This document shows positions 2,174 through 41,388 of a stretch of 64,000 nt of DNA, piece after piece. Made by a program: the position numbers and the translations under genes. The notes beneath the pieces were generated by a model. It was not told the DNA's origin. It saw only the letters and a list, made by a program, of their open reading frames with translations, and made no database searches. The first letter of the stretch is position 1; every line of letters begins with the position of its first letter. Source of the stretch: a phage. The DNA lies in NCBI GenBank assembly GCA_022520065.1, contig GCA_022520065.1_3942.1; one strand, given 5' to 3'.

Positions 2174-3346
2174 ATGGCAGTAGGTGAAATTCAAATTAGT
2201 GCCTTGCCTCAAGCATCCTTACCAATTGACCTTAGTGATATCTTCCATCTTAAGCAGGGTATTGAGGATAAGAGGTGTACTCTTGAGCAATTACTTGCTC
2301 CACACGCAAGCCTAAGAAATAACCCTCATGGTGTTACTAAAACACAAATTGGTTTAGATAATGTTATTAATGCTCTTCAGTTAGTCGCTGCAAATAACTT
2401 ATCAGATATTGTTAATGTAGCTGAGGCAAGAGCAAATCTACAGATTATGTCTTCAGAAGAGGTTAATAACCTTGTCCAGCAACATATCAAGGACAAGAGT
2501 AACCCACACAATACAACTAAGGCACAGGTTGGTTTAAGTAATGTTCAGAACTGGACAACATCTAATCTGTATAACGAAGATGCAGATAAGTATGCTACAG
2601 CAAGAGCAGTAAATAACTTGTACAAGGCTGTTCAGGCTTCTTATCCAGTAGGTGCTATCCATCTTTCTATGAACTCTGCAAACCCTTCCACATACTTAAT
2701 TTGTGGAGGTACTTGGGAGTTAGTTTCAAAAGGCAGGGCATTGGTTGGCTATGACTCTGATACAAGACCAGCAGGTTCTGTATTTGGCGCTTCAACTGTC
2801 ACTTTGTCAGTTAATAACATGCCTCAGCACTCCCACTCTGTGTCTCTTAGCGGTGGTGGTCACACTCATAATGCAACTGTGTCAATTTCAGCTTTTGATT
2901 ATGGGACTAAGACTACAAACTCTTTTGACTATGGGACAAAAGCTACTAACACAACTGGTAACCATACACACAGTGTGTCAGGTAACACTAGCACCAATGG
3001 TACTCACAACCATGATGTGTATCCTAGAGAAAATGATGGCACTGGTAATGCTGTGGCTGACTCTGATGGTGGTGGTGCAAGAAGGACATCAAGGACTTCT
3101 AGTGATGGTGCGCACTCACACAGCTTTAACGTCACATCTGGTGCATCAGGTGACCACAGCCACACGGTTGGTATTGGTGCTCACAGTCATACAGTTGGTA
3201 TTGGTTCACATACGCATAGTGGCACTGTAACAGTTTCTTCTTCTGAACATACACATAGTGGCAATACAAATAGTGTTGGTGGAGGTCAGGCAGTTAATAT
3301 TGAACAGCCATCCTTCGTACTGTATGTATGGCAGAGAACAGCTTAA
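2174..3346 (+). CDS. tail fibre protein with C-terminal HxH-repeat tip
   Basis: Repeated HSHxVGIG / HTHS motifs and FDYGTK repeats; C-terminal region paralogous to 3393..5747; both end in W-x-RTA. Confidence 0.7.
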   Translation: MAVGEIQISALPQASLPIDLSDIFHLKQGIEDKRCTLEQLLAPHASLRNNPHGVTKTQIGLDNVINALQLVAANNLSDIVNVAEARANLQIMSSEEVNNLVQQHIKDKSNPHNTTKAQVGLSNVQNWTTSNLYNEDADKYATARAVNNLYKAVQASYPVGAIHLSMNSANPSTYLICGGTWELVSKGRALVGYDSDTRPAGSVFGASTVTLSVNNMPQHSHSVSLSGGGHTHNATVSISAFDYGTKTTNSFDYGTKATNTTGNHTHSVSGNTSTNGTHNHDVYPRENDGTGNAVADSDGGGARRTSRTSSDGAHSHSFNVTSGASGDHSHTVGIGAHSHTVGIGSHTHSGTVTVSSSEHTHSGNTNSVGGGQAVNIEQPSFVLYVWQRTA

Positions 3347-35436: not shown

Positions 35437-37218
35437 ATGACTAAATCACTTTATGCAGTACCAGCAGGTTTAAATGCAGATGCTTACAAATCTGGTCATG
35501 TTTACCAGTATCCTAGTGCAACAGAATATTTGATGTTCAACCTGACACCACGTAGCGACAAATGGTTTAACAGTCCATTAGCAATTGATGGTGTAGTCGC
35601 TTTTGGTATTCAACGTTTTGTTAAAGATTACTTGATAGACCACTGGAATGCTACGTTCTTTGAACGTGACAAAAAAGAAGCAATTGACGAAATCTTAGAA
35701 GTCATGAATGGTGTTCTGGGCAAAGATGCTATCGGTCGAGAGCATTGGGAAGCACTTCACGACTTAGGTTATCTACCAGTTGAAGTATACGCTGTAGAAG
35801 AAGGCACAGTTGTCCCTATGCGTGTTCCGATGATTGTTTTCCAGAACACTGTTTCAGGTTTCCATTGGGTAGCAGGTTATCTGGAAGATGCTTTCTCTGC
35901 TGAGATTTGGAAGGCTTGTACCATTGCAACTATTGCATTGCACTACAAACGTATCTGTAAGAAGTGGGCTGACCTTACTTGTGACAACGACTTGCATTTG
36001 CCTTATCAGTGCCATGACTTTGCTATGCGTGGTATGTCCGGCTTTACTGATGACGCATTTAACGCTGTAGGCCACTTAACCAGCTTTAAAGGAACTGATA
36101 GCTTCCCTGCTGTGTATACGGCTAAACGAATCTATGGACAGTCCTACCCAATCTCTGATATTGGTAGCTCTGTACCAGCCACTGAGCACTCTGTAATGTG
36201 TGCAAACATTGCTTGGGAAGGTGGTAATGAGTTGATTGAAGAAGAAAGACGCTTTAAAGGTGAGTTACAAACCTTCCGTCGTTTCTTAACAGAAACTTAC
36301 CCAACTGGTATTGCAAGTATTGTTTCAGATACTTATAACTTCTGGAGAACTGTGTCAGAAATCTTACCAGCACTCCGTAAAGAAATTATGGAACGTGACG
36401 GTAAACTGGTAATTCGTCCTGACTCTGGAGACCCTGTACATATTGTCACAGGGTACAAAGCAATCCATTTAGAGTGTGCTAAAAAGTCTTATTACGAACA
36501 CTTAAGCAAGCTTGAAGCCAGCGACACAATGTTGAATGCTGTTCTGAACATGAAGCTTGAAAACATCAATTATGGTATTGCTGGATGGCTACTGTCAGAA
36601 GGCTACGAAATGGTTGTTGACAGAGAAGACTTTGAAGTTGCTGATACAGTGCTGTTGAAAAACGCATATATGGTTGGTTCTGCAAACGTTGTAACACGTC
36701 CTGTAGCAGAGATTGATGGAGCTATTAAGACCTTGTATAACATCTTTGGAGGAACTATCAACTCTAAAGGTTTTAAGGTACTGGATGAACATATCGGCCT
36801 TATCTATGGTGACTCTATCACGTTGGAACGTGCAAACGAAATCCTGAAGCGTCTGTATGAAATGGGGTTTGCAAGCTCTAACGTGGTGTTTGGTGTAGGC
36901 TCTTACACTTACCAGTACATGACTCGTGACACCTTTGCATTTGCTGTCAAAGCAACTCTTGCAAGCATTGGTGGCAAAGAGATTATGCTTGCAAAAGACC
37001 CTAAAACAGATAGTGGTGTTAAGAAATCTGCCTTTGGTGGTGTAGCGCCTATGTGGGATGGTGATAAGTTGAAAGCTGTAGATGGCTACGGATTCCAGAG
37101 TTTTGCAGATGTACTTGACCACCCAGCTTGTGCTTTACGTTTAGTCTTTAGTGACTCTGAGCAGTTTGGTTACACAACTCTTGGTGATATTCGAAATAAT
37201 ATTGACAAGCAGCTTTAA
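35437..37218 (+). CDS. nicotinamide phosphoribosyltransferase-like enzyme (NAMPT/Namat-like)
   Basis: 593 aa; NAMPT-like GTDS motif (HLTSFKGTDSFPAV), family-level match by memory. Confidence 0.7.
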   Translation: MTKSLYAVPAGLNADAYKSGHVYQYPSATEYLMFNLTPRSDKWFNSPLAIDGVVAFGIQRFVKDYLIDHWNATFFERDKKEAIDEILEVMNGVLGKDAIGREHWEALHDLGYLPVEVYAVEEGTVVPMRVPMIVFQNTVSGFHWVAGYLEDAFSAEIWKACTIATIALHYKRICKKWADLTCDNDLHLPYQCHDFAMRGMSGFTDDAFNAVGHLTSFKGTDSFPAVYTAKRIYGQSYPISDIGSSVPATEHSVMCANIAWEGGNELIEEERRFKGELQTFRRFLTETYPTGIASIVSDTYNFWRTVSEILPALRKEIMERDGKLVIRPDSGDPVHIVTGYKAIHLECAKKSYYEHLSKLEASDTMLNAVLNMKLENINYGIAGWLLSEGYEMVVDREDFEVADTVLLKNAYMVGSANVVTRPVAEIDGAIKTLYNIFGGTINSKGFKVLDEHIGLIYGDSITLERANEILKRLYEMGFASSNVVFGVGSYTYQYMTRDTFAFAVKATLASIGGKEIMLAKDPKTDSGVKKSAFGGVAPMWDGDKLKAVDGYGFQSFADVLDHPACALRLVFSDSEQFGYTTLGDIRNNIDKQL

Positions 37219-37232
37219 AAGTATATGATAAG

Positions 37233-37254
37233 AGGCTCCTACGGGAGCCTTTTT
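37233..37254 (+). terminator. intrinsic terminator
   Basis: AGGCTCC-tacg-GGAGCCT followed by TTTT. Confidence 0.6.
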
Positions 37255-37271: not shown

Positions 37272-37607
37272 ATGAAAATCAAAGAGATGAACATCAACAT
37301 TGTCTTAGAAGAACGTTGGGAGAACATCAATAAGCCTGAAGATGGCCATAAGTTTCTTAACAAAATTTTAGTAGCAGCTAAAGAAGAACTGACTGGCAAG
37401 GTCGCAGCAGCAATTACAATAAAGGTCTGCGTAAAAGGTCTTCCAGACAATCACCAATTTGCGCTTGACGAGTTTAAAAAAAGCTTCTACAATCCAAACA
37501 AACAGATACTTGAAAGTAACTTTGCAGTATCTACAAGTATCGTCCATGACAGAAGCTTTATCCTTTACAAGAATATGAGAGGTGAGTCATGCAAGCATAT
37601 TGGATAG
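37272..37607 (+). CDS. hypothetical protein
   Basis: 111-aa ORF. Confidence 0.45.
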   Translation: MKIKEMNINIVLEERWENINKPEDGHKFLNKILVAAKEELTGKVAAAITIKVCVKGLPDNHQFALDEFKKSFYNPNKQILESNFAVSTSIVHDRSFILYKNMRGESCKHIG

Positions 37608-37765
37608 AAATTTTACTGTCACTTGGTAGTGTAGCAGTATTTGTTTACCTCCTTTGTAAGTACTTTGCAGAGCACAAAAAATGTGACTACTGTAATGGAG
37701 AGGGGTACATAAGGGCAGGATGTTGCCCTATGTGTGGTGGTTCTGGTAAAATGTTTAACAAGTAA
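37589..37765 (+). CDS. small membrane protein with DnaJ-type CxxCxGxG zinc finger (not in track)
   Basis: 58 codons; hydrophobic N-terminus then CDYCNGEG...CPMCGGSG; GAGAGG RBS. Confidence 0.35.
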   Translation: MQAYWIEILLSLGSVAVFVYLLCKYFAEHKKCDYCNGEGYIRAGCCPMCGGSGKMFNK

Positions 37766-37793: not shown

Positions 37794-40160
37794 ATGCGCA
37801 TGGTAAACGACCACGCAGAAGTGATTAAGAGTTCAACTTCTTTAGAGACGTCTCAAGCACAGATTACAATGACACCTGAAATGTTCAGCCTTTTGAGTTC
37901 TGGTGTATATACCTTTAAAGAAAGGGCAGTGATTCGTGAACTGTCATGTAACGCAGTAGATGCTCAGAAAGAGGCTGGAAAAGAGAACATCCCGTTCCAT
38001 GTGCATTTACCTACTCGTTTTGAGCCTTACTTTGAAGTTCGTGATTTTGGAACTGGATTGACTCATGATAAAGTTATGAGTTTGTACCTAAACTATGGGG
38101 CTTCTACGAAGAATGACTCTAATGACTACATTGGTGCAATGGGTATCGGCTCAAAATCACCATTTGCAATTGCTCAGTCATTCACAGTGTCTAGCTATGT
38201 TGACGGTGTTGTTAATAAGTACTCTGTTTATCTTGAGAATGGTATCCCTCAAGTAACTAAGCTGACCACTAACCCAACAAAAGAACCTAATGGTTTAGCT
38301 GTACGTGTGGCAGTTGCTGACCACCGTATTTCAAAGTTCTTTGAAGAGGCTGGTAATGTATACTCATACTTTGCTGTAAAACCAGAGAGTAATGTGGAGT
38401 ATAATGATATATTAGCAGATATGGATGTGATTGCTCGTGAAGAAGGTGTCTATGATGCCATGACTCATAAGCATAGCTGGCGTTCAAGCAGCAATAGAAC
38501 AGAGTTTAACGTGGTTATGGGTAATATTGCCTACCCAGTTAATATGGAGGCATTACTTGGTGATGATTTCTTCAAAGTATTACCAGAATTTTTCCGCAGG
38601 AGCATAGACCTTGTAAACATCTACATGCCTATTGGTTCAGTTGCTATTGCAGCTTCTCGTGAAGCATTGCAGATGAATGACACGACAAAAAATGTTATCA
38701 TCGAGGCTACTAAAAAGATAACTGAAGCAATTACAAAGGATGTTATCAAGAAAGTTAATAGTCAACCTACACTCATGGATGCTGCACAGGCTTATGCTGA
38801 GTTACGCTTGAACTCACGAGAGATGTTTAATGTTGTGTGTCCAAAGCTAGAGTGGGGAGGTGTTAAGCTTGATTCTCTGGAAGAAGAATTACTAAACATT
38901 CGTCGTGGAATTATCTACGCAGAAGACGGCTCAGTCATTTACGAACGTGACGGTAAAGGTAATATTAAGGTTGATAGGAACGGGAACAATATCCCTAAAG
39001 TAGATTATCTTTATGACCCAGTTGCTTATGTCAAGTTCAACTCTTTAGAGAGTAAGATTCGTGCAACATCGCTTTCCTACACTCAAGAGGCAAGTATGTT
39101 CAATATCTTTGGCGCAATGCGTAAAAGCCAAATTGAACAGTTTTTGTTTGTTATAAATGACCGTCGCAATAAAAACGGTACTGAGAAGACTGTAGGACGC
39201 AATCAAATCTTGCGTGGTGCATGTCGAGACTATGCCAGTGAGTCGAACCTGTTTCACAGATACAATGGTATTGTCTTTGTATTCTCGACTGAAAAAGAGC
39301 TAGATGACTTAATCAATCTACACAAACTTGATAAAAGCTTGTTAAAGATTGTGAAGATGTCTGATAAGGAACACCATTATCAGCGTAAAGAAGCTGTAAG
39401 AGGTGTTGTAAAACTCTGGAAAGCTGTTCCAGCAGAAGGTGTAGCTTCCTATAAAGAGGTTTCAGAGGACTTTGATACAATTGAAGAGCCTCAACTTTAT
39501 ATCAAGGCAGTAGGCGACACTGTTGATGGCGAATGTTTTTGCTCATCTCCAGAAGATGTAGCTAAGTCAGTTGCCAATGTCATTGGGAAGACAGTCTATG
39601 TTTTCCGAAAAGCAAATTGGAAAAAGATACCAGAAGACTGGATTGAAGTAGATGAGAAACTCTTGAACGACAGTTTAACTGATGTTCATTGGATTAATCA
39701 TAACAGGTATATGACACGTATCTATATGAATGGTGTCCTTGACCTTACAAGCAGTTGGATTATTGCCAGAAACTTTACGTTCAATAACAGGAAGATTTCT
39801 CGTGGCTATTGTTATTCACGGGATACAAACAAAACTATCTTCTTAGAAGGTAATGAAGATGCTGTAGAGGCAATGTTTGGTAAAATCCAATACGTTGCTG
39901 CACCGTTTGCATATACTTACACTATTAGTAGGTTGCAAACTTTGAAAGACTGCCTTGACAATGATACAAAGCTGTACAAGAAAATTAAGAAAGCTGGTGA
40001 CCGCATGGTCATTAAGGTGACAAACTACCTTTCAAAAAGAAAACAAGAAAACTTCTTGCTTTCTCATTTAGATTGGAATAAAGTGTCACCCATCGAAGTG
40101 AGTAAGTTCTTAGGCTTTGATGTGAAGTGTGTTCCAGAAGGGACTACAATTTACGATTAA
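37794..40160 (+). CDS. rIIA: rIIA protein
   Basis: N-terminal segment FSLLSSGVYTFKERAVIRELSCNAVDA and NDYIGAMGIGSKSPF closely resemble T4 rIIA. Confidence 0.9.
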   Translation: MRMVNDHAEVIKSSTSLETSQAQITMTPEMFSLLSSGVYTFKERAVIRELSCNAVDAQKEAGKENIPFHVHLPTRFEPYFEVRDFGTGLTHDKVMSLYLNYGASTKNDSNDYIGAMGIGSKSPFAIAQSFTVSSYVDGVVNKYSVYLENGIPQVTKLTTNPTKEPNGLAVRVAVADHRISKFFEEAGNVYSYFAVKPESNVEYNDILADMDVIAREEGVYDAMTHKHSWRSSSNRTEFNVVMGNIAYPVNMEALLGDDFFKVLPEFFRRSIDLVNIYMPIGSVAIAASREALQMNDTTKNVIIEATKKITEAITKDVIKKVNSQPTLMDAAQAYAELRLNSREMFNVVCPKLEWGGVKLDSLEEELLNIRRGIIYAEDGSVIYERDGKGNIKVDRNGNNIPKVDYLYDPVAYVKFNSLESKIRATSLSYTQEASMFNIFGAMRKSQIEQFLFVINDRRNKNGTEKTVGRNQILRGACRDYASESNLFHRYNGIVFVFSTEKELDDLINLHKLDKSLLKIVKMSDKEHHYQRKEAVRGVVKLWKAVPAEGVASYKEVSEDFDTIEEPQLYIKAVGDTVDGECFCSSPEDVAKSVANVIGKTVYVFRKANWKKIPEDWIEVDEKLLNDSLTDVHWINHNRYMTRIYMNGVLDLTSSWIIARNFTFNNRKISRGYCYSRDTNKTIFLEGNEDAVEAMFGKIQYVAAPFAYTYTISRLQTLKDCLDNDTKLYKKIKKAGDRMVIKVTNYLSKRKQENFLLSHLDWNKVSPIEVSKFLGFDVKCVPEGTTIYD

Positions 40161-40166
40161 AGTGTT

Positions 40167-40196
40167 TGACAAGGGGCTTTGAAGCCCCTTAGAATA
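40167..40196 (+). promoter_or_regulatory. promoter-like TTGACA-N18-TAGAAT with palindrome in spacer
   Basis: Spacer is near-palindrome AGGGGCTT-tg-AAGCCCCT. Confidence 0.4.
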
Positions 40197-40239: not shown

Positions 40240-41349
40240 ATGACTACTAAAACTAAAGCACAGATTGACGCAGAAATTTACGAACTGGTTAAAGAAGGTA
40301 AGCTGACTAAAACAGCTATTGCACAGAAGTTCAATACCTCAACCCGTTCAGTTGGTCGTGCTGTAGAGCGTCATGAAGCAACCTTAAAAGGGAATAAGAA
40401 GGCAACTGCTGCACCAGCTACGAAGACTTTGAAACAAGTTGCTAAGACTTTTAAAAAGAAAGCTGGCAAACCAGTTGAAAAGGTTGTTAAAGATGCTGTA
40501 CAGAAAGCTCCAGTAAATAAACTGCATGAAGCTATGCAGAAAGATGACAAGATTGAGTACATGATTACTGGCGACTCTGTAATTATGACTTACGGTTCAG
40601 AGTCTGAAATTGTTGAATCTACTCATCCGAACTATCAAGAGATTGTAGTTCATGTTGTGAAAGGTGAGTTTAAGAAAGCCTTTGAACTGATGAACATTCG
40701 TAAGTCTATCGAAAACTTCACTCAGGGTGCTATCACAATCAAAGGTGACAAACTATTCTACGGTGCTGTTGAGATGCGTTCTACTCTGGTTGACCGTATT
40801 CTTCACATGATGAAGACTGGAGATAAAGGTTTTGAACGCCTTGTAATGTTCTTTGAAAAACTGATGGAAAACCCATCTAAAGATTCTGTAGAACAACTTT
40901 GGGGCTTCGTATCTCACCTTGATGTTGAAATTGATGAAGAAGGTTACATCATCGGTTGGAAGAAAGTCTCTACTCGTGAAGGCAAGCTGGTTGACTCTCA
41001 CACCTACAAAGTACCTAATGATTTGGGTAACATTGTAGAAATGCCACGTTGGATGGTTGATAATAACCGTAACGTAACTTGCTCTCAAGGTCTTCATGTT
41101 GGTGCTTGGGATTACGTTCGTTGCTTCTCAGGTGATACAATCCTGAAGGTTCGTGTCCATCCACGAGATGTTGTATCTGTTCCAACTGATTACAACGATA
41201 TGAAGATGCGCTCATCCCGTTATGAAGTTGCAGCAATCGTTGATAATCATCGTAAAGTGCTGAAAGCGTGGGATGGTAAGACTGAAGCTTTGCATGTCAT
41301 CGTTGGTACTGCTGGTGAACTTATCTCTCAACGTAAACGTGAAATCTAA
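40240..41349 (+). CDS. rIIB: rIIB protein
   Basis: C-terminal VRVHPRDVVSVPTDYNDMKMRSSRYEV and CSQGLHV resemble T4 rIIB. Confidence 0.85.
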   Translation: MTTKTKAQIDAEIYELVKEGKLTKTAIAQKFNTSTRSVGRAVERHEATLKGNKKATAAPATKTLKQVAKTFKKKAGKPVEKVVKDAVQKAPVNKLHEAMQKDDKIEYMITGDSVIMTYGSESEIVESTHPNYQEIVVHVVKGEFKKAFELMNIRKSIENFTQGAITIKGDKLFYGAVEMRSTLVDRILHMMKTGDKGFERLVMFFEKLMENPSKDSVEQLWGFVSHLDVEIDEEGYIIGWKKVSTREGKLVDSHTYKVPNDLGNIVEMPRWMVDNNRNVTCSQGLHVGAWDYVRCFSGDTILKVRVHPRDVVSVPTDYNDMKMRSSRYEVAAIVDNHRKVLKAWDGKTEALHVIVGTAGELISQRKREI

Positions 41350-41366
41350 TAAGTAATTTCTTAAAA

Positions 41367-41388
41367 GGCTGCTCCGGCGGCCTTTTTT
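41367..41388 (+). terminator. intrinsic terminator
   Basis: GGCTGC-tccg-GCGGCC followed by TTTTTT. Confidence 0.6.

Follow-up and report, generated by a model that had tools for sequence, protein, structure and literature searches.

The phage contig GCA_022520065.1_3942.1 (GenBank assembly GCA_022520065.1), of which we analyzed a stretch of 64,000 nucleotides, hereafter called the window, carries a 58-codon open reading frame (ORF) directly upstream of rIIA, at positions 37589..37765 on the + strand (stop included). The ORF translates as MQAYWIEILLSLGSVAVFVYLLCKYFAEHKKCDYCNGEGYIRAGCCPMCGGSGKMFNK, followed by a stop codon, and is a real gene under strong purifying selection. Its product joins a hydrophobic N-terminal segment to two exact CxxCxGxG motifs, and our favored explanation, to which we give a probability of a little over one half, is that it is a membrane-tethered, cytoplasmic Zn(Cys)4 mini-protein that binds another protein, is made early in infection, and plays an accessory role. 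The 1 kb around the ORF matches 253 phage records at 90 to 99% identity, and nearly all of them are Felix O1-like phages of Escherichia, Salmonella, and Shigella; the window thus belongs to Felixounavirus (subfamily Ounavirinae).

A conserved gene of 58 codons directly ahead of rIIA

The ORF had been picked out by an original prediction, made from the letters of the window, as an unannotated gene for a membrane-anchored peptide with two DnaJ-type repeats. Its coordinates and translation proved exact, and the good ribosome-binding site claimed for it is present as well: a Shine-Dalgarno sequence, GAGAGG, lies at 37577..37582 (+), 6 nt before the ATG, and a site of the GGAG/GAGG type stands at the same distance in Mooglevirus and Suspvirus. 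The two repeats, CDYCNGEG (residues 32 to 39) and CPMCGGSG (residues 46 to 53), each fit CxxCxGxG exactly. rIIA starts at 37794, 28 nt past the stop codon of the ORF, in agreement with the position just before rIIA that had been given. The word "unannotated," on the other hand, was true only of the ORF track from which the prediction was made, since relatives of the gene are annotated in GenBank and the family is PHROG 3931.

Conservation of the frame in relatives, the check that the prediction itself had named, was borne out. tblastn found the ORF in 264 phage records, in 263 of which a single place accounts for at least 80% of the query, and the 35 loci that were retrieved represent 30 different nucleotide versions, every one of them with an intact frame. 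Within Felixounavirus, the proportions of synonymous (pS) and nonsynonymous (pN) differences are 0.244 and 0.022, respectively, giving a pN/pS of 0.09, and the variable sites are distributed over codon positions 1, 2, and 3 as 8, 5, and 29. Mooglevirus and Suspvirus, at 47 to 59% protein identity, keep the frame, the ribosome-binding site, and a 19-nt overlap with the preceding gene. In all six frames of the window, the C..C.G.G pattern matches only at these two places, and a search of the window for paralogues returned no other ORF with CxxCxGxG. In 300 Markov-1 random sequences of the same size, single motifs occurred at a mean of 0.24 and the paired motif in none (0/300).

ORFs of the same architecture stand directly ahead of rIIA in five Ounavirinae lineages, namely, Felixounavirus, Mooglevirus, Suspvirus, Kolesnikvirus SB18, and Pectobacterium phage Arno162. 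The SB18 (54-aa) and Arno162 (52-aa) ORFs were missed by tblastn and are of equal build in the same place, with an adjacency to rIIA that spans the record ends in both; the Arno162 rIIA is only 41% identical to that of the window. A homologue of 52 to 59 aa is also present in T4-like phages of the Krischvirus type (RB49, FL04, and metagenomic relatives). Word-indexed homology searches returned only Ounavirinae and these Krischvirus-type relatives, none with an annotated function. An exhaustive HMMER search of 1.84 billion representatives gave 631 matches, about 10 of which are small proteins combining a transmembrane (TM) segment and the zinc finger; the others are DnaJ and multirepeat CxxCxGxG proteins that match through the motif alone and are uninformative on function.

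Membrane helix and predicted zinc knuckle

Residues 5 to 23 (WIEILLSLGSVAVFVYLLC; 37601..37657, +) form the best 19-residue hydrophobic window of the protein, with a mean Kyte-Doolittle value of 2.1, which agrees with the hydrophobic N terminus of the original prediction, and are predicted to be a TM helix. An AlphaFold2 (AF2) model with a mean predicted local distance difference test (pLDDT) score of 80 shows a helix at residues 3 to 28 followed by a small beta-knuckle at residues 29 to 56. Q2, Y4, W5, E7, L10, S11, and G13 are conserved across the Felixounavirus, Mooglevirus, and Suspvirus sequences. The polar residues E7 and S11 lie on one face of the helix and are invariant in these three genera, and an E/N-x3-S/T pair is found in most lineages. 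Judged by this sequence pattern, the helix is not a featureless anchor.

The N-terminal tail is free of Lys and Arg and contains an acidic residue in every lineage but Arno162, Lys or Arg directly follows the helix in all lineages but one, and the C-terminal flank of the Krischvirus-type homologues is strongly positive (net +4). Because of this charge pattern, and because a Cys4 zinc site suits the reducing cytoplasm, we favor an N-out/C-in topology, though not as a secure assignment.

Codons 32 to 53 (37682..37747, +) spell CxxCxGxG-x6-CxxCxGxG. In a 12-member alignment reaching down to 27% identity, the residues that are invariant after the initiator Met are C32, C35, G37, G39, C46, C49, G51, and G53; P47 is nearly invariant, and C45, the first half of a CC doublet, gives way to V, I, or P in part of the alignment. 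Since C32, C35, C46, and C49 are invariant while C45 varies, these four cysteines are the predicted zinc ligands. A pair of repeats suffices for just one Zn(Cys)4 site, as in Anti-TRAP, and the modeled domain corresponds best to one half of the DnaJ Cys-rich domain. Of the zinc finger with two repeats in the original prediction, the exact motifs thus stand, while only one zinc site is possible and the family scores fall below their cutoffs.

Compared against the PDB, the family profile matched the Cys-rich domain of Escherichia coli DnaJ (1EXK) with an E value of 1e-8, human DNAJA3 with 2.4e-5, and Anti-TRAP with 0.045 to 0.07. A Foldseek search of the model against the PDB placed the Anti-TRAP zinc subdomain (3LD0/2BX9) on top, followed by DnaJ and BSD2; the superposition of model on crystal structure gave a root mean square deviation (rmsd) of 1.0 to 1.2 Å over 29 residues at approximately 31 to 34% identity, with a probability of 1.00 and an E value of 0.06 to 0.16. 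Nothing in Pfam, NCBIfam, or PADLOC scored above threshold for the protein. The DnaJ_CXXCXGXG family (PF00684) gave 18.3 bits against a gathering threshold of 32.7, the NCBIfam DnaJ models 18.6 against 377, Anti-TRAP (PF15777) 11.7 against 32, RtpA (NF058604) 14.4 against 65, and DUF5351 (PF17302) 19.9 against a gathering threshold of 27. No match to a J domain with its HPD motif was found in the 58-aa protein, which has no room for one, and the two repeats do not amount to the four-repeat, two-zinc-center layout of DnaJ.

Relative to the DnaJ/Hsp40 Cys-rich domain (PF00684; 1EXK), the phage protein has the exact CxxCxGxG motif twice, with the x6 spacing of DnaJ repeats 3 and 4, but it has two repeats rather than four and would hold one zinc ion rather than two. 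It also lacks the J domain, the G/F region, and the C-terminal substrate-binding domains and has an N-terminal membrane helix. The closer counterpart is Anti-TRAP (RtpA) of Bacillus (2BX9, 3LD0, and 3LCZ), which is 53 aa long, has no J domain, carries a single Zn(Cys)4 knuckle with equal motif spacing, and gave the best structural match to the phage model (rmsd of 1.0 Å over 29 residues at 34% identity). Unlike the phage protein, whose chain stops 5 residues past the knuckle and whose sole helix is the hydrophobic one at the N terminus, Anti-TRAP is a soluble protein in which a helix follows the knuckle. That C-terminal helix drives trimer and dodecamer assembly, and it is through its knuckle region that Anti-TRAP binds another protein, TRAP.

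In architecture, the nearest protein is the plant FtsH5-interacting protein (FIP), which has one TM segment and a C4 zinc finger of two CxxCxGxG repeats on the stromal side and binds FtsH5 (PMC5915565). The phage ORF shows the TM segment and the two repeats, while its membrane side is judged by charge only, which is ambiguous in some lineages; the stromal side of FIP would be the equivalent of the cytoplasmic side proposed for the phage knuckle. FIP is eukaryotic, plastid located, and longer, with a transit peptide, and the comparison made here is one of architecture. For so short a module, common descent of the two would hardly be demonstrable. A two-repeat "partial DnaJ central domain" also occurs as an insert of HMO-2011-type DNA polymerases and in Q-like antiterminators (PMC9038755 and PMC5313236). 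Dozens of small uncharacterized phage proteins (46 to 100 aa) with the same knuckle are found in BFVD, and profile searches gave weak matches to lambda Q. In contrast to the window protein, these modules either form soluble domains of larger proteins or make up small proteins that have no membrane helix, and their functions are unrelated or uncharacterized. The zinc-finger ORF belongs with the J-domain-less, DnaJ-like zinc-finger mini-proteins, here with a predicted membrane anchor.

Fitness in phage Bas63 and competing explanations

Gene g83 (bas63_0083) of the Felixounavirus Bas63 (MZ501086) encodes a protein identical to the window protein at 56 of 58 positions. Gene essentiality in Bas63 was mapped in the PhageMaP preprint (10.1101/2024.10.10.617714), and the values that follow come from its fitness sheets. 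Disruption of g83 scored 0.11 to 0.48 on E. coli S17 and −0.17 to 1.27 on a second laboratory strain (MG1655 by sheet order); a fitness overlapping zero or positive means nonessential by the reading of the PhageMaP authors. On QatABCD hosts, g83 scored +0.66 to +0.81, compared to −1.26 to −1.61 for rIIA (g84) and −1.05 to −2.46 for rIIB (g85). Positive g83 values were also recorded for TerY-P, for a further sheet that its order would identify as AVAST type 4, and for a NAD-depleting system, on whose sheet the NAD-salvage genes g79 and g80 are required (10.1101/2024.10.10.617714). The sheets considered here cover four defense-system hosts, on none of which do they show a defense-specific fitness loss of g83; 21 further systems of the panel were not assayable in that study. 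The text of the preprint makes no mention of g83. As far as these sheets go, therefore, g83 is dispensable on the hosts covered and RIIA/RIIB have no obligatory partner in it for the one rII phenotype assayed.

On the explanation that we favor, the ORF product would be a bitopic inner membrane mini-protein, produced early in infection from a host-type promoter as part of one transcription unit with a 111-aa ORF (ORF111), rIIA, and rIIB. Residues ~3 to 28 would form a single TM helix, with the short acidic N-terminal tail in the periplasm and the C terminus in the cytoplasm. Residues 32 to 53 would fold round one zinc ion, held by C32, C35, C46, and C49, as a knuckle of the DnaJ/Anti-TRAP type only ~8 residues from the membrane surface. 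Most likely, this knuckle would serve as a small surface for protein binding, to capture or retain a partner at the inner membrane face, because the protein has no J domain, no catalytic domain, and no room for catalysis, and because both Anti-TRAP, the nearest structure, and FIP, the nearest architecture, bind proteins through such a knuckle. A second, intramembrane contact could come from the polar side of the helix, where Y4, E7, S11, and G13 are conserved. Since strong conservation of the gene goes together with its dispensability on laboratory hosts, its product would be an accessory, condition-dependent factor of an early membrane and counter-defense block (the NAD-salvage genes, the zinc-finger ORF, rIIA, and rIIB), not a core replication or morphogenesis protein.

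Several observations weigh against this explanation. The PhageMaP sheets give no phenotype for g83 in two laboratory strains and four defense hosts, and the AF2 model was built on an alignment of only 9 sequences. In DnaJ, zinc ions are not shared between neighboring repeats of this x6 spacing, so that, by analogy, the phage knuckle may have an intermolecular, dimer-forming zinc arrangement. The topology is insecure because Mooglevirus and Suspvirus have a weak charge bias with an acidic linker and a C-terminal flank of net −4, and because the bias is reversed in Arno162, with K4 in the N-terminal tail. Furthermore, the Krischvirus-type homologues sit beside a glutaredoxin gene and not beside rII. 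In four divergent contigs of this type, the homologue shares 8 to 11 nt with the 3′ end of an NrdC-like glutaredoxin gene and precedes a DUF7570 gene (L005:2236-2653, L050:3742-4177, L051:255-699, and L052:125-554), and the argument from rII context is therefore lineage specific. Finally, a few single genomes carry copies frameshifted at differing positions (P0003 to P0007, e.g., phiWec177 and NJ12). The frameshifts of P0003 and P0005 to P0007 enter the same alternative 63-aa frame, and P0004 (NJ12), 41 aa long, is missing the N-terminal part; these copies may reflect sequencing error or occasional real loss.

A tentative and much less probable alternative is that the protein is a membrane-localized counter-defense or host-takeover factor whose knuckle and polar helix face (E7-x3-S11) bind a specific inner membrane host protein. 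FtsH or a membrane-acting defense effector could be the target; otherwise, the protein could assist RIIA/RIIB as a conditional cofactor against defense systems apart from QatABCD. The PhageMaP study validated the modules on either side, g79/g80 and g84/g85, as counter-defense genes (10.1101/2024.10.10.617714), and the block is therefore an anti-defense-flavored neighborhood. As set out above, g83 itself showed no loss of fitness on the four defense hosts considered.

We consider it unlikely that the protein is a dedicated subunit or membrane tether of RIIA/RIIB, with the knuckle binding RIIA or RIIB at the inner membrane. The gene does lie directly upstream of rIIA, with which it appears to share a transcription unit, and it has kept this position in five Ounavirinae lineages while rIIA diverged to 41 to 46% identity. 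However, in the Bas63 sheets, disruption of g83 was harmless on QatABCD hosts, where disruption of rIIA or rIIB was costly; homologues of rIIA occur in 2391 phage records versus ~264 for the zinc-finger gene; and the Krischvirus-type homologues are located away from rII. rIIA.1 of T4, likewise a small ORF directly upstream of rIIA, is an unrelated, hydrophilic 67-aa sequence that lacks both a Cys motif and a membrane helix and was rejected as a positional homologue.

The original prediction pointed to host chaperones or proteases as frequent targets of small phage zinc-finger peptides. Binding or modulation of a host chaperone or protease at the membrane, either FtsH or DnaK/DnaJ, appears distinctly improbable. 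The motif is of the DnaJ Cys-rich type, Arabidopsis FIP combines the same TM segment and two CxxCxGxG repeats with FtsH5 binding (PMC5915565), which is an indirect protease precedent only, and a DnaJ-like zinc-finger subunit of the chloroplast Ycf2-FtsHi complex is among the weak matches (8xku_R and 8xqw_R). Against this, the case is one of analogy, every family score is below threshold, and the Bas63 sheets record no phenotype on laboratory hosts. Moreover, the same two-repeat module is found in phage DNA polymerases and Q-like antiterminators, which are unrelated to chaperones, and thus the motif alone does not point to DnaK/DnaJ.

A redox role is very doubtful. Here, the Cys-rich module would work with a phage glutaredoxin as a thiol-disulfide switch, a membrane oxidoreductase, or a glutaredoxin dock. 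The plant membrane DnaJ-like zinc-finger proteins LQY1 and CYO1 have been reported with disulfide isomerase activity, four Krischvirus-type contigs show the overlap with the glutaredoxin gene described above, and the Cys-rich C-terminal domain of GRXCR1/2, which is fused to a glutaredoxin, gives a weak match, with an E value of 0.015 for the window protein and 0.0011 for FL04. These Pfam matches, however, are far under the cutoff, and gene overlaps are common in tightly packed phage genomes. In Ounavirinae, moreover, ~10 kb separates the ORF from the glutaredoxin gene, and the small membrane ORF behind the latter is a different one, free of Cys. We note that the gene overlap in the Krischvirus-type contigs echoes the fusion of glutaredoxin and Cys-rich domain in GRXCR1/2. 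A check of one Ounavirinae genome, that of Bas63, showed an overlapping 68-aa membrane ORF behind the glutaredoxin gene (bas63_0065/0066, L047:2141-2582); bas63_0066 has no Cys and no match to the zinc-finger peptide and was rejected as its relative.

An inverted topology is more doubtful still. It would put a disulfide-bonded Cys domain in the periplasm, with an envelope role such as superinfection exclusion or lysis timing, on the model of the small early T4 membrane proteins Imm, Sp, and RI. Its support comes from the charge bias, whose direction is unclear in Mooglevirus and Suspvirus and opposite in Arno162, and from membrane- and lysis-flavored surroundings, with rIIA and rIIB adjacent and, in Bas63, spanins ~3 kb downstream. 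On the other side stand the N-terminal tail, which has no Lys or Arg and is acidic in nearly all lineages, the net charge of +4 in the Krischvirus-type C-terminal flank, and the exact CxxCxGxG consensus, which is typical of cytoplasmic zinc sites. Pfam and PHROG searches gave no similarity to Imm, Sp, RI, or holin families, and no lysis-family match that would suggest a holin, an antiholin, or a lysis regulator; the gene has a host-type promoter-like site and early rII company, and the holin and endolysin genes of Bas63 are located elsewhere.

Last, a chance ORF or a decaying remnant without function, for which the few frameshifted versions and the dispensability in the laboratory sheets might be cited, is effectively refuted by the low pN/pS, the excess of third-position changes, the 263 intact records out of 264, the invariance of the motif residues across genera and even phage families, and the absence of the paired motif from random sequences.

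Candidate transcription unit, annotation, and wider family

Upstream of the zinc-finger ORF, a nicotinamide phosphoribosyltransferase (NAMPT) gene occupies 35437..37218 (Pfam NAPRTase, E value of 6.5e-35). A terminator-like hairpin with a 10-bp stem and a T run (37230..37253, +) would end its transcription unit; the same hairpin is an annotated terminator in phage Meda. ORF111 (37272..37607, +; phrog_4262, listed with unknown function) follows and shares its last 19 nt with the beginning of the zinc-finger ORF. rIIA (37794..40160, +; 788 aa; phrog_612, E value of 1.7e-189) and rIIB (40240..41349, +; 369 aa; phrog_609, E value of 2.2e-89) lie downstream. A consensus scan placed a sigma-70-like promoter, TTGACA-16-TATGAT (11 of 12 positions), at 37202..37229 (+), as a candidate early promoter of the unit of ORF111, the zinc-finger ORF, and rIIA; a second promoter-like site, TTGACA-18-TAGAAT, at 40166..40195 (+) ahead of rIIB, also by consensus only; and a terminator-like hairpin at 41363..41386 (+) that would end the rII unit. 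A weak promoter-like site between the zinc-finger stop codon and rIIA overlaps the rIIA start codon and therefore cannot serve rIIA. Because such consensus sites bracket the genes from ORF111 to rIIB, ORF111, the zinc-finger ORF, and rIIA look like one early transcript of the host polymerase. The first promoter-like site abuts the NAMPT hairpin, and a transcript from it would begin inside that hairpin, in a compact terminator/promoter junction (37202..37253, +).

ORF111 and the zinc-finger ORF are probably translationally coupled, as a 19-nt overlap is an arrangement typical of coupling; it is kept in Felixounavirus, Mooglevirus, and Suspvirus. ORF111 has homologues in Ounavirinae only, according to our homology search, and its Kolesnikvirus counterpart has no significant similarity to it. 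The AF2 model of ORF111 (pLDDT, 69) shows a beta-alpha-beta-alpha-beta-beta fold with no significant match in the PDB, the best being the IF3 C-terminal domain and the Schlafen N-terminal domain (E values of at least 0.01; TM score, ~0.45). Since these matches gave no usable lead, ORF111 was dropped as a clue to the function of the zinc-finger gene. The slot between NAMPT and ORF111 is variable: it is empty in the window, holds a 114-aa ORF, g81, in Bas63 (L047:11509-11853), and holds a 71- to 73-aa ORF in Mooglevirus and Suspvirus (L003:1973-2194, L004:1972-2187, and L055:1197-1412, the last with DUF7279).

The family is already catalogued, as PHROG 3931, with its function listed as unknown. 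The PHROG 3931 hidden Markov model matches the protein over its full length, with residues 1 to 58 on positions 1 to 59 of the 59-position profile (E value of 1.5e-33; 115.7 bits), and the members bas63_0083, JH2 gp023, and Meda_002 are the same family at the same position before rIIA. GenBank names them "putative membrane protein," "membrane protein," and "possible membrane protein," respectively, and others "hypothetical protein"; beyond "membrane protein," the family bears no label of function or domain, and none of the public annotations examined mentions a zinc finger. In the record of Enterobacteria phage CHB7 (MK562504), a 46-aa gp2 in the wrong frame (L006:2613-2753) lies over the intact 58-aa ORF (L006:2501-2677), probably through a gene-calling error. 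In the literature, we found no described function for the gene and no Felixounavirus transcriptomics. The zinc module is well known and common in phages; what is added here is the domain reading (a membrane helix plus an Anti-TRAP-like knuckle), the conservation pattern, the distribution, and the two genomic contexts.

Some further sequences share parts of this design. Matches from a scan of viral contigs (L038 to L046) were rejected as homologues, as they share only a CCPxCxGxGK stretch inside unrelated proteins of ~150 to 200 aa. In the environmental contigs L039 to L046, CCPLCGGSGK stands near the C terminus of unrelated ~150-aa proteins (positions ~3001 to 3072; 2158 to 2190 in L042) that have no membrane helix and only one full motif. 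Five metagenomic proteins of ~100 to 130 aa (P0024, P0040, P0062, P0091, and P0096) have an N-terminal hydrophobic segment and four to six CxxCxGxG repeats and apparently represent a wider, uncharacterized class of membrane-anchored or secreted multiknuckle proteins. Lastly, the zinc-finger ORF is found at 91 to 97% identity in records named Staphylococcus phage SA1 (GU169904) and Campylobacter phage A126 (MG065668), while Campylobacter phage D1 (MG065646) was seen only through a 30%-identical rIIA match. Felix O1-like DNA in records with such host names suggests contamination, chimeric assembly, or mislabeled hosts.

Because the gene is nonessential in the laboratory and narrowly distributed and its module is common, the payoff would be incremental and not conceptual unless a partner is found. 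If our explanation is true, it would give a domain-level annotation to PHROG 3931 and to the Kolesnikvirus, Arno162, and Krischvirus-type relatives. Typing and therapy of Salmonella and E. coli make wide use of Felix O1-like phages, and rII genes are now known as both counters and triggers of membrane-linked defense systems. In this setting, a conserved membrane peptide cotranscribed, as it appears, with rII is a cheap and well-defined candidate for interaction screens. Should the protein turn out to be a counter-defense factor, its fixed place between the NAD-salvage genes and rIIA/rIIB in every Ounavirinae lineage would mark an anti-defense island.

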